From Escherichia coli (lineage in GTDB: Bacteria > Pseudomonadota > Gammaproteobacteria > Enterobacterales > Enterobacteriaceae), in the NCBI RefSeq assembly GCF_003334305.1, contig NZ_QOWS01000031.1: 37,766 nucleotides of DNA; one strand, given 5' to 3'. The notes under the pieces were generated by a model that made no database searches, was not told where the DNA came from, and saw nothing but the letters and a program-made list of their open reading frames with translations. This document shows, piece by piece, positions 24,426 to 26,071 of this stretch (positions within the stretch are counted from its first letter, which is position 1; each line of letters starts with the position of its first letter). A program made the position numbers and the translations under genes.

Positions 24426-24716
24426 ATGAAATTAAAAATAGTTGCGGTGGTTGTAACTGGTTTGTTAGCTGCGAACGTAGCACACGCTGCCGAAGTCTAT
24501 AACAAGGATGGTAATAAACTCGACCTTTATGGCAAGGTTACCGCTCTACGTTATTTTACTGATGATAAGCGTGACGATGGTGATAAAACTTATGCCCGTC
24601 TCGGCTTTAAAGGAGAAACGCAAATCAATGATCAAATGATTGGTTTTGGTCACTGGGAATATGATTTTAAAGGCTATAACGATGAAGCCAACGGCTCGCG
24701 CGGCAAGAATCTCTGA
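24426..24716 (+). pseudogene. yddL: 5' fragment of a general porin gene (OmpC/OmpF/PhoE family): signal peptide plus first about 75 mature residues, then stop
   Basis: 96-aa ORF; signal peptide [21 protein letters not shown] then [17 protein letters not shown]...RLGFKGETQ, the conserved porin N-terminus; far too short for a beta-barrel. Confidence 0.75.
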
Positions 24717-24739
24717 TTGAGTTAAGTGCCCATCACAAT

Positions 24740-26071
24740 ATGATCACTGACCTTATATTACACAATCATCCCAGGATGAAAACAATCACTTTAAACGACA
24801 ACCATATTGCACATTTAAACGCCAAAAACACTACAAAACTGGAATATTTAAACTTAAGCAATAACAATTTACTGCCAACCAATGACATTGATCAACTAAT
24901 ATCATCAAAACATCTTTGGCATGTATTAGTTAACGTCATCAACAATGATCCACTTGCACAAATGCAGTACTGGACTGCAGTAAGAAATATAATTGATGAC
25001 ACTAATGAAGTGACCATTGATTTATCAGGACTTAATTTAACCACTCAACCACCAGGGCTGCAAAACTTCACCTCTATCAATCTTGATAATAACCAACTCA
25101 CACATTTTGATGCAACCAACTACGATAGACTCGTAAAGCTAAGTCTGAATAGTAATGCTCTTGAGTCAATAAATTTTCCTCAAGGCAGAAATGTAAGTAT
25201 TACACATATATCTATGAATAATAATGCTCTCAGAAATATTGATATAGATAGGCTTTCATCAGTTACTTATTTTAGTGCGGCACATAATCAACTAGAGTTT
25301 GTGCAATTAGAATCTTGCGAATGGCTGCAATACCTGAATCTCAGCCATAATCAATTAACTGATATTGTTGCAGGTAATAAAAATGAACTCTTACTGCTGG
25401 ATCTATCCCATAATAAACTAACAAGTTTACACAATGACTTATTTCCCAACTTGAATACGTTACTTATTAACAACAATTTGCTTTCTGAAATTAAAATATT
25501 CTATAGCAACTTCTGCAATGTTCAGACATTAAACGCTGCTAACAACCAGTTGAAATATATAAATCTTGATTTCCTGACTTATCTTCCATCTATCAAAAGT
25601 TTAAGACTGGACAATAATAAAATAACCCACATTGATACTAATAATACATCCGATATTGGAACTTTATTCCCCATAATAAAACAGAGCAAAAACTTAAATT
25701 TTTTAAATGTTTCTGGGAAGAACAATTGCCCTACTATGCAGCTCATGTTATTTAATTTGTTTTCCCCAGCACTTAAGCTTAATACTGGCCTGGCAATTCT
25801 TTCGCCTGGTGCATTTGAAGTTCACTCTGACGGAATAGATGTGGATAACGAATTGTTTCACTATCCTATTAAAAAAGCATATACCCCATATAATATACAT
25901 ACTTACAAGACAGAGGAAGTTGTAAACCAGAGGAATATAAAAGTTAAAAACATGACCTTAGATGAAATAAACAATACTTACTGTAATAACGATTATTACA
26001 ATCAGGCAATAAGAGAGGAACCGATAGACCTTCTGGACAGATCGTTTTCCTCCAGTTCATGGCCTTTTTAG
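24740..26071 (+). CDS. yddK: Leucine-rich repeat protein, 443 aa (about 9 tandem 21-23-residue LRRs plus 111-aa C-terminal domain of unknown function); no signal peptide
   Basis: Continuous ORF; repeats of form LxxLxLSxNxLxxI (e.g. LQYLNLSHNQLTDIVAGNKNEL); very AT-rich (about 27-30% GC). True start may be ATG 24776 (MKTITL...). C-terminal 111 aa correspond to what I recall as separate yddJ. Confidence 0.75.
   Translation: MITDLILHNHPRMKTITLNDNHIAHLNAKNTTKLEYLNLSNNNLLPTNDIDQLISSKHLWHVLVNVINNDPLAQMQYWTAVRNIIDDTNEVTIDLSGLNLTTQPPGLQNFTSINLDNNQLTHFDATNYDRLVKLSLNSNALESINFPQGRNVSITHISMNNNALRNIDIDRLSSVTYFSAAHNQLEFVQLESCEWLQYLNLSHNQLTDIVAGNKNELLLLDLSHNKLTSLHNDLFPNLNTLLINNNLLSEIKIFYSNFCNVQTLNAANNQLKYINLDFLTYLPSIKSLRLDNNKITHIDTNNTSDIGTLFPIIKQSKNLNFLNVSGKNNCPTMQLMLFNLFSPALKLNTGLAILSPGAFEVHSDGIDVDNELFHYPIKKAYTPYNIHTYKTEEVVNQRNIKVKNMTLDEINNTYCNNDYYNQAIREEPIDLLDRSFSSSSWPF

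Follow-up and report, generated by a model that had tools for sequence, protein, structure and literature searches.

The genes yddG and ompD, the latter encoding a porin, are adjacent in Enterobacter hormaechei (PMC11874173), and yddG and ompD have also been linked in Salmonella (Santiviago 2002). The corresponding site of Escherichia coli O157:H7 EDL933 was described as O-island 62 (z2239-z2242; 1,548 bp), with an equivalent in enteroaggregative E. coli (EAEC) 042; the whole island was held to be recently acquired, and the ancestral island was stated to be one that "was disrupted in E. coli K-12 by insertion of yddK" (Okeke et al., 2011, PMC3079680). The K-12 protein YddK is the prototype defining the 'IRREKO' class of leucine-rich repeats (LRR) (Matsushima et al., 2010, PMC2946307), and in 2023 the neighboring yddL was proposed, from co-occurrence, to encode a four-strand outer-membrane protein tied to osmotic stress (PMC9976479). 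This article describes the origin of yddL and of the LRR open reading frame (ORF) that follows it in a stretch of E. coli DNA of 37,766 nucleotides (contig NZ_QOWS01000031.1 of RefSeq assembly GCF_003334305.1; hereafter the window), in which the order of genes is fdnG - yddG - yddL - LRR - narU - narZ. Over positions 23286-26400 the window has 100% identity with E. coli strain A7 and 98.9% with K-12 MG1655. Very probably, yddL is a dead porin fragment left after two repeat-mediated deletions collapsed an ancestral porin-LRR-A-espR1 locus, and the adjoining ORF of 443 aa is a remnant as well.

Three allele classes were found at this locus in E. coli: the window type, a long type that is 2,186 bp longer, and a short type. 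The long allele occurs in O157:H7 and other strains and contains an intact porin gene (366 aa), an upstream LRR gene located between the porin gene and espR1, which is here labelled LRR-A, and espR1 itself. The locus of E. coli O157:H7 FRIK2455 (L001; porin of 366 aa at 2641-3741, espR1 at 5231-6490) served as the long-allele reference for blastn and breakpoint mapping, and the E. coli strains Nissle 1917 (L004), Ecol_545 (L005), 98198 (L006) and 23CRST011 (L007) were also compared. LRR-A is frameshifted in O157 and forms a single open frame of 419 aa in L005 and L007. By blastn, the window aligns with L001 in three blocks, 23286-24709 with 1501-2924 (98.2% identity), 24701-25026 with 4461-4786 (97.5%) and 25015-26600 with 5428-7001 (94.0%), which are collinear and overlap by 9 nt and 12 nt; all bases from yddL to narU align to the long allele.

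The two overlaps are direct repeats at which the window allele departs from the long one. The first corresponds to nt 276-284 of the porin gene (L001 2916-2924) and to L001 4461-4469 in LRR-A, and reads CGGCAACAA in the porin gene, CGGCAAGAG in LRR-A and CGGCAAGAA in the window, while two deletion-allele strains keep the porin base C at 24707. Deletion 1 comprises 1,545 bp and leads from porin codon 93/94 into the middle of LRR-A. Lost with it were porin codons 94-366 and the terminator of that gene, as well as the LRR-A promoter and start together with about 187 of the following codons; since the fusion is out of frame, the porin frame ends after K-N-L-stop. At the second junction the repeat CATTGATTTATC codes for I-D-L-S both in LRR-A (residues 290-293) and in EspR1 (residues 67-70). 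Deletion 2 comprises 653 bp, leads from LRR-A to espR1 codon 67 with the frame kept, and contains the tail of LRR-A, the intergenic region and the promoter, Shine-Dalgarno sequence (SD), start and codons 1-66 of espR1.

Population counts were based on 5,426 complete E. coli genomes: 3,139 have junction 1 complete, 3,128 have junction 2 complete, and 1,100 have the DNA taken out by deletion 1 at a coverage of at least 80%. The window type accounts for ~58% of the genomes, a full porin for ~20% and nothing at the site for ~22%; genomes without junction 1 or the deleted segment mostly have the short allele, in which yddG abuts narU, as in Nissle 1917 and uropathogenic strains. Junctions that are identical in thousands of genomes point to a single origin. 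Since more than 3,100 complete genomes share these junctions, an assembly artefact was ruled out. The species has an intact allele at this locus, and the breakpoints lie within direct repeats, the two features by which a deletion-derived pseudogene is recognized. An initial annotation of the window had proposed that a rearrangement destroyed a porin gene, and comparison with the genomes that have an intact porin at the same locus (O157:H7 and others, collinear with the window), together with breakpoints resolved to the base, bears this out; it overlooked that the event was a simple deletion and that a second one had fused LRR-A to espR1.

The deletion steps are read straight from the comparison of sequences. 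The ancestral E. coli locus very probably had the order yddG - porin (366 aa, positional ortholog of OmpD) - LRR-A (419 aa) - espR1 (417-419 aa) - narU, and both deletions arose in the lineage to which K-12, BL21 and the strain of the window belong, together with about 58% of the E. coli that have been sequenced. Deletion 1 joined the porin stub out of frame to the interior of LRR-A, and deletion 2 fused LRR-A and espR1 in frame. If made, YddL would be exported and its signal peptide cleaved; with 80% of the domain gone and no assembly signal (...YQF) at its C-terminus, it could form no 16-strand barrel. Any transcription of the LRR part would derive from read-through from the porin promoter or from a fortuitous internal promoter. 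The features of the locus are collected in Table 1.

Table 1. Features of the yddG-narU interval in window coordinates.
Feature	Position	Strand	Description
yddG-porin intergenic region	24168..24425	+	Putative porin promoter and 5' untranslated region; SD AAGGA at 24412-24416
yddL ORF	24426..24716	+	96 aa; truncated porin pseudogene; tail K-N-L-stop derived from LRR-A in a different frame
Porin signal peptide, codons 1-21	24426..24488	+	Mature PDB porins align from residue 22; sequence equals that of the O157:H7 porin
Porin mature residues 22-93 (N-terminal ~20% of barrel domain)	24489..24704	+	tblastn and Porin_1 match
Deletion junction 1	24701..24709	+	Imperfect 9-bp direct repeat (CGGCAAsAr) with exact 6-bp core CGGCAA
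LRR-A internal fragment, about residues 188-289	24710..25014	+	97.5% identity to L001 4461-4786; includes ATG 24740
LRR ORF	24740..26071	+	443 aa; equivalent to K-12 yddK+yddJ; without native promoter, SD and N-terminus
Deletion junction 2	25015..25026	+	Exact 12-bp direct repeat CATTGATTTATC
espR1-derived part	25027..26071	+	EspR1 residues 71-417 and stop codon (tblastn)
LRR frameshift	25344 (deletion)		Alignment of sampled deletion-allele genomes
LRR frameshift	25688 (deletion)		Common to K-12, BL21 and four others
LRR frameshift	25759 (deletion)		Alignment of sampled deletion-allele genomes
LRR frameshift	25875 (insertion)		Alignment of sampled deletion-allele genomes

The porin origin of yddL is clear at the protein level. 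By tblastn it is 100% identical to the O157:H7 porin over residues 1-92, and residue 93 (Gly, GGC) agrees with the porins of L005 and L007. In the full-length allele, the alignment with solved mature porins starts at residue 22, which gives a signal peptide of 21 aa for yddL. The signal peptide and N-terminal porin strands with a stop at 24716 had been given with exact coordinates in the initial annotation, in agreement with the Porin_1 and mature-porin alignments; its truncation after about 75 mature residues is also right as a count, although only 72 of them (22-93) are porin-derived and the last three are the out-of-frame LRR residues. Pfam Porin_1 matches YddL residues 27-91 over model positions 1-65 of 337 (E 2.6e-23), and the NCBIfam models of OmpC, OmpF and PhoE match the first ~90 residues only, with 126.6 bits against an OmpC-subfamily cutoff of 484. 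YddL therefore has the Sec signal peptide and the conserved mature N-terminus of a porin, lacks the full-length barrel domain and fails the curated family score. It ends in ...GSRGKNL, without the aromatic-ended C-terminal beta-strand (...YQF) for outer-membrane assembly.

A permissive tblastn search (word size 2, E<=10) with the full porin against the whole window in all frames, the kind of search for a downstream remnant that the annotation had called for, matched 24426-24701 only, all else having E>2; the absence of porin sequence elsewhere in the window argues for a deletion and not for an inversion or a frameshifted continuation. The 96-aa form was found only in Escherichia and Shigella. 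The annotation had named a conserved stand-alone 96-aa protein as the finding that would speak against it; what was found is a single deletion allele with identical junctions, confined to these two genera. RefSeq labels yddL as a pseudogene ('porin; incomplete; missing C-terminus'), and the names given to it in databases conflict ("lipoprotein", "porin", "outer membrane porin protein LC", "hypothetical").

The 443-aa ORF begins after a gap of 23 nt (24717-24739) and consists of LRR-A residues 198-293 followed by EspR1 residues 71-417. By tblastn, LRR-A residues 183-293 map to 24695-25027, and EspR1 residues 67-417 map to 25016-26068 with 90% identity. The start of an LRR gene 23 bp downstream of yddL, as first annotated, is not a native start: ATG 24740 is the internal Met198 of a 5'-truncated LRR-A. 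Homology to EspR1 is not full-length either, as only residues 67-417 are represented and residues 1-66 with the native start lie within deletion 2. Type III secretion signals normally sit in the N-terminal residues of effectors. The internal Met, the lack of an SD and the lack of a type III secretion N-terminus together indicate that the 443-aa ORF is a decaying remnant. In a survey of 10 deletion-allele genomes, picked down the identity ranking, its frame was unbroken in two (A7 and OkiPb01678) and disrupted in eight, and their alignment contains at least four independent 1-bp indels. The LRR gene is flagged as frameshifted in the K-12 RefSeq record (the classical yddK and yddJ ORFs), and newer annotation by the Prokaryotic Genome Annotation Pipeline (PGAP) splits it into two partial pseudogenes with limits that correspond to the LRR-A and espR1 pieces. 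The RefSeq product name of the O157:H7 gene is 'T3SS effector leucine-rich repeat protein EspR1' (T3SS, type III secretion system), and work by Tobe and colleagues from 2006 is said to support its status as an effector. In a published table the name EspR1 belongs instead to ECs1568 of prophage Sp6 (PMC2323221), at odds with the RefSeq product name at this locus, which is the one followed here.

The history of the site was examined at yddG loci from 80 species, onto which porin, LRR-A, EspR1 and NarU were mapped. A porin directly 3' of yddG on the same strand, with 68-75% amino acid identity, was found in many species of Citrobacter, in Salmonella enterica arizonae and diarizonae, in Enterobacter and in Lelliottia; about 35 outgroup loci have a porin in this position, often with narU a few kb beyond. 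Mapping of LRR-A and EspR1 gave no match in the porin-bearing yddG loci of Citrobacter, Salmonella, Enterobacter and Lelliottia. The porin after yddG in the outgroups indicates that the porin is ancestral at the site and a positional ortholog of OmpD, being 3' of yddG, on the same strand and in fdnG-yddG-porin...narU synteny. Scores against OmpK36 and OmpC from PDB (424-426 bits) do not discriminate, and since sequence scores fail to separate OmpD from OmpC the orthology rests on synteny. The outgroups show that the porin of the island is ancestral to the site, contrary to the recent-acquisition view, while the LRR genes are best described as an Escherichia-specific, AT-rich addition to the locus (GC content is 33% in the LRR region, 44% in the porin and ~50% in the flanks). 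The intact long-allele porin scores 495.8 bits in the NCBIfam OmpC subfamily; this exceeds the cutoff, which is why PGAP names the yddG-adjacent porin 'ompC'. Canonical ompC presumably lies elsewhere in E. coli, and long-allele genomes would then bear two ompC-labelled genes.

The yddG-porin intergenic region is collinear with its O157:H7 counterpart (7 differences in 258 nt), and the promoter-like hexamers upstream of the porin, which are consensus matches only, are identical in both alleles. The energy of the duplex with the anti-SD is -5.4 kcal/mol at the porin start and -5.6 kcal/mol at the native espR1 start; at ATG 24740 it is -2.2 kcal/mol, weaker than the median of -2.8 kcal/mol of all 686 ATG triplets of the window, in accordance with the earlier remark that no SD is obvious there, and Met13 of the LRR ORF has -1.9 kcal/mol. 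A scan of the plus strand from yddL to the end of the LRR ORF gave no terminator-like site. In the long allele, a terminator-like hairpin of the porin (L001 3753-3776; 9-bp stem, 6 G-C pairs, T-run) lies inside deletion 1, and both native LRR promoters fall within deleted DNA. With the porin terminator and the native LRR promoters deleted, read-through from the porin promoter is the simplest source of an LRR transcript, and such transcription of the LRR ORF is plausible. Promoter-like hexamers are present at 24717-24744 and 24732-24759, and in the long allele too (L001 4477-4519); a promoter scan returned 9 promoter-like sites against 10.3 expected from shuffling, and with no excess of sites these hexamers are by themselves no evidence for an LRR promoter. 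An Rfam scan of 24000-26500 (E<=1) gave no known RNA element and one chance miRNA match (22 bits, gathering score 79). Right after the yddG stop, at 24174-24194, lies a G+C-rich hairpin, TGCCGGGCCGTAGACCCGGCA, which is terminator-like on the minus strand only, with a T-rich tail; as it has no T-run on the plus strand, termination of yddG before the porin promoter may be inefficient.

The intact E. coli porin is under strong purifying selection (omega, the ratio of nonsynonymous to synonymous substitution rates or dN/dS, of 0.04-0.07), and just 3 of 15-23 differences in it are nonsynonymous. All four variable sites of yddL in the 10 surveyed genomes are nonsynonymous (D69V, W77R, G90C and K94N), a pattern that agrees with relaxed constraint in what is a small sample.

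Several observations weigh against the interpretation of yddL and the 443-aa ORF as remnants. The yddL frame is open in each of the 10 surveyed genomes. The dN/dS of the LRR parts (0.25-0.42) is alike in long-long and long-deletion comparisons and is thus non-discriminating, for which reason frameshift counts were used instead. The exact 443-aa protein is encoded on at least 1,000 contigs, and its frame is intact in a sizeable minority of strains. Genomic SELEX (systematic evolution of ligands by exponential enrichment) with RNA polymerase in vitro lists an RpoD 'internal promoter' between yddL and yddK, inside a predicted yddLKJ operon (PMC3946193), which speaks against pure read-through, so that the LRR part may have a start of its own, and differential microarray signals of yddL and yddK in REL606 (PMC2817434) indicate that the locus is not transcriptionally silent. 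Invariance was compared among the window, L001, L005, L006, L007 and 9 deletion-allele loci: the density of segregating sites per site is 0.014 in nt 1-276 of the porin (24426-24701), 0.046 in yddG and 0.066 in the intergenic region upstream. Over this segment, long and deletion alleles diverge by 0.0024 per site, and in the flanks by about 0.022; in all allele classes the porin promoter, 5' untranslated region and first 276 nt are 3- to 9-fold less diverged than the DNA flanking them. Between long alleles, 0-1 of the 15-23 porin differences fall within these first 276 nt, the first polymorphism of the porin being right beside the deletion junction, at nt 278-279. Such invariance could hint at residual constraint on yddL. 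It could also result from constraint at the nucleotide level (targeting by small RNAs or a translation leader), from gene conversion or from recombination tracts ending at the breakpoint.

Explanations other than decay were also considered. In the insertion model (Okeke et al., 2011, PMC3079680) the island is ancestral and a foreign yddK was inserted into it, leaving yddL and yddJ as stubs, which fits the match of yddL to the 5' end of z2239 and of yddJ to the 3' end of z2242/espR1 and also the AT-richness of the LRR region, a common property of foreign DNA. Its probability is practically negligible, as there is no inserted DNA: the yddK-equivalent sequence aligns to the 3' half of LRR-A (97.5%) and to espR1 (94%), the window allele is shorter than the long one and not longer, and both junctions lie within direct repeats common to the two parental segments. 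Insertion of yddK is refuted by the collinearity of window 24701-26600 with L001 4461-4786 and 5428-7001, and on this alignment yddK is made up of z2241, in its 3' half, joined to z2242. That YddL is instead a functional small envelope protein, a four-strand outer-membrane or periplasmic product acting in permeability or osmotic stress (PMC9976479), would agree with its intact promoter region, SD and signal peptide, with the open frame and very invariant first 276 nt, and with the reported co-occurrence with osmotic and motility genes. However, it retains just 65 of the 337 Porin_1 positions and no C-terminal beta-signal, its last three residues are out-of-frame junk, all observed substitutions are nonsynonymous and located at conserved porin residues, and about 42% of E. 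coli genomes do not have this form. Moreover, for a single Escherichia/Shigella deletion allele, co-occurrence with genes of phylogroups A/B1/C is expected from shared ancestry alone, so that a functional YddL is most improbable.

Early in its coding region, ompD of Salmonella is targeted by several Hfq-dependent small RNAs. It is very unlikely that the porin stub was kept for a comparable role at the level of RNA or expression, either titrating small RNAs that regulate porins or acting as a promoter-leader that drives the 443-aa chimera in strains with an unbroken frame. A live chimera, co-transcribed with yddL from the porin promoter and encoding a cytoplasmic LRR protein with a new role independent of secretion, is an unlikely alternative in spite of the missing terminator between yddL and the ORF (that of the porin having been deleted), the frame kept by deletion 2, the intact frame in the window, in A7, in OkiPb01678 and on the contigs counted above, and the yddLKJ operon predicted in databases. 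Neither ATG 24740 nor Met13 has an SD, both being weaker than the random-ATG median, and translation would begin at a Met from the interior of a gene that has lost its 5' part; both effector N-termini are gone, independent frameshifts accumulated among 10 genomes, and some records contain two partial pseudogenes in the PGAP annotation.

Other alleles of the locus were encountered in the course of the comparison. The short allele of B2-type strains (L004 2463-2468) corresponds to one separate deletion of ~4.1 kb, equivalent to window 24248-26209, and these strains are without the porin promoter, the porin, both LRR genes and ~120 bp past the espR1 stop, so that yddG lies 272 bp from narU. E. 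coli has lost the porin of the OmpD locus at least twice independently. A third independent deletion was found in L006 (2705-3672), where the N-terminal part of LRR-A is fused to the middle of an espR1-like gene and the porin is intact; position 2992 joins L005 2992 to 4609, with about 1.6 kb gone. The LRR genes, lying in tandem, appear especially prone to deletions between repeats. In L005 and L007 the intact 419-aa frame of LRR-A (2711-3967) is unannotated in RefSeq, where the one call inside it is a 'partial' pseudogene of 288 nt (3302-3589); the omission probably stems from the use of K-12 or O157 fragments as evidence. In Escherichia sp. MOD1-EC7003 (L008, 7877-14186) yddG is followed by nhoA, ansP, yncE and pqqU/yncD and not by the porin and narU, which implies a much larger deletion or rearrangement with loss of the whole narU-narZYWV region. 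The deletion-allele strains 74-2 and PK8277 have transposase genes of the insertion sequences IS5 and IS903B in the yddG-narU interval, which add about 1.1-1.2 kb and are further evidence that the locus tolerates disruption. NZ_LR025101.1 matches no more of the deleted segment than its initial 648 nt (42%), annotated as 'porin', and this may be another truncated porin variant at the locus.

Upstream of yddG, the minus-strand gene fdnG contains an in-frame TGA at 22467-22469 (...QARV-TGA-HGPT...) that splits it into ORFs 20007..22418 and 22467..23054, and in RefSeq it is one coding sequence of 3,048 nt. The TGA agrees with the known selenocysteine codon of formate dehydrogenase-N.

The pseudogene status of yddL was already known from databases, and the comparison with O-island 62 from the literature; added here are a reconstruction at base level, a corrected origin in place of the insertion model, and figures for how frequent the alleles are. 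The value of these results is mainly curatorial, with no new kind of biology. They settle the conflicting database names of yddL, correct the origin of yddK to two deletions in place of an insertion, and identify K-12 YddK, the IRREKO prototype, as a chimera of two truncated effector-like genes. They argue against a functional osmotic-stress YddL (PMC9976479), as a deletion allele linked to phylogroup would yield the same co-occurrence signal. Most E. coli have lost the porin of the OmpD locus, and the 'ompC' label that PGAP gives to the surviving porin could mislead porin inventories in studies of antibiotic permeability.

Among the described systems, OmpD of Salmonella and Enterobacter has the same position and orientation after yddG and shares 68-75% identity with the full-length allele of E. 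coli, whereas the window keeps only codons 1-93. EspR1, an effector of the T3SS of enterohemorrhagic E. coli according to RefSeq, is 90% identical over residues 71-417 to residues 97-443 of the window ORF, which lacks the first 66-70 residues of EspR1 and begins instead with 96 internal residues of its paralog LRR-A. The 96-aa sequence of K-12 yddL (b1472, YDDL_ECOLI) is identical to that of the window in a locus of 98.9% identity, but in the K-12 LRR ORF a 1-bp deletion, equivalent to window 25688, gave rise to yddK and yddJ, while the 443-aa frame of the window is unbroken. O-island 62 occupies the same yddG-narU site, and its size of 1,548 bp is near that of deletion 1 (1,545 bp); it has an intact porin, a full espR1 and an LRR-A that is frameshifted in O157 and intact in 042-type strains, L005 and L007, and the window is a collinear subset of it with 2.2 kb less.

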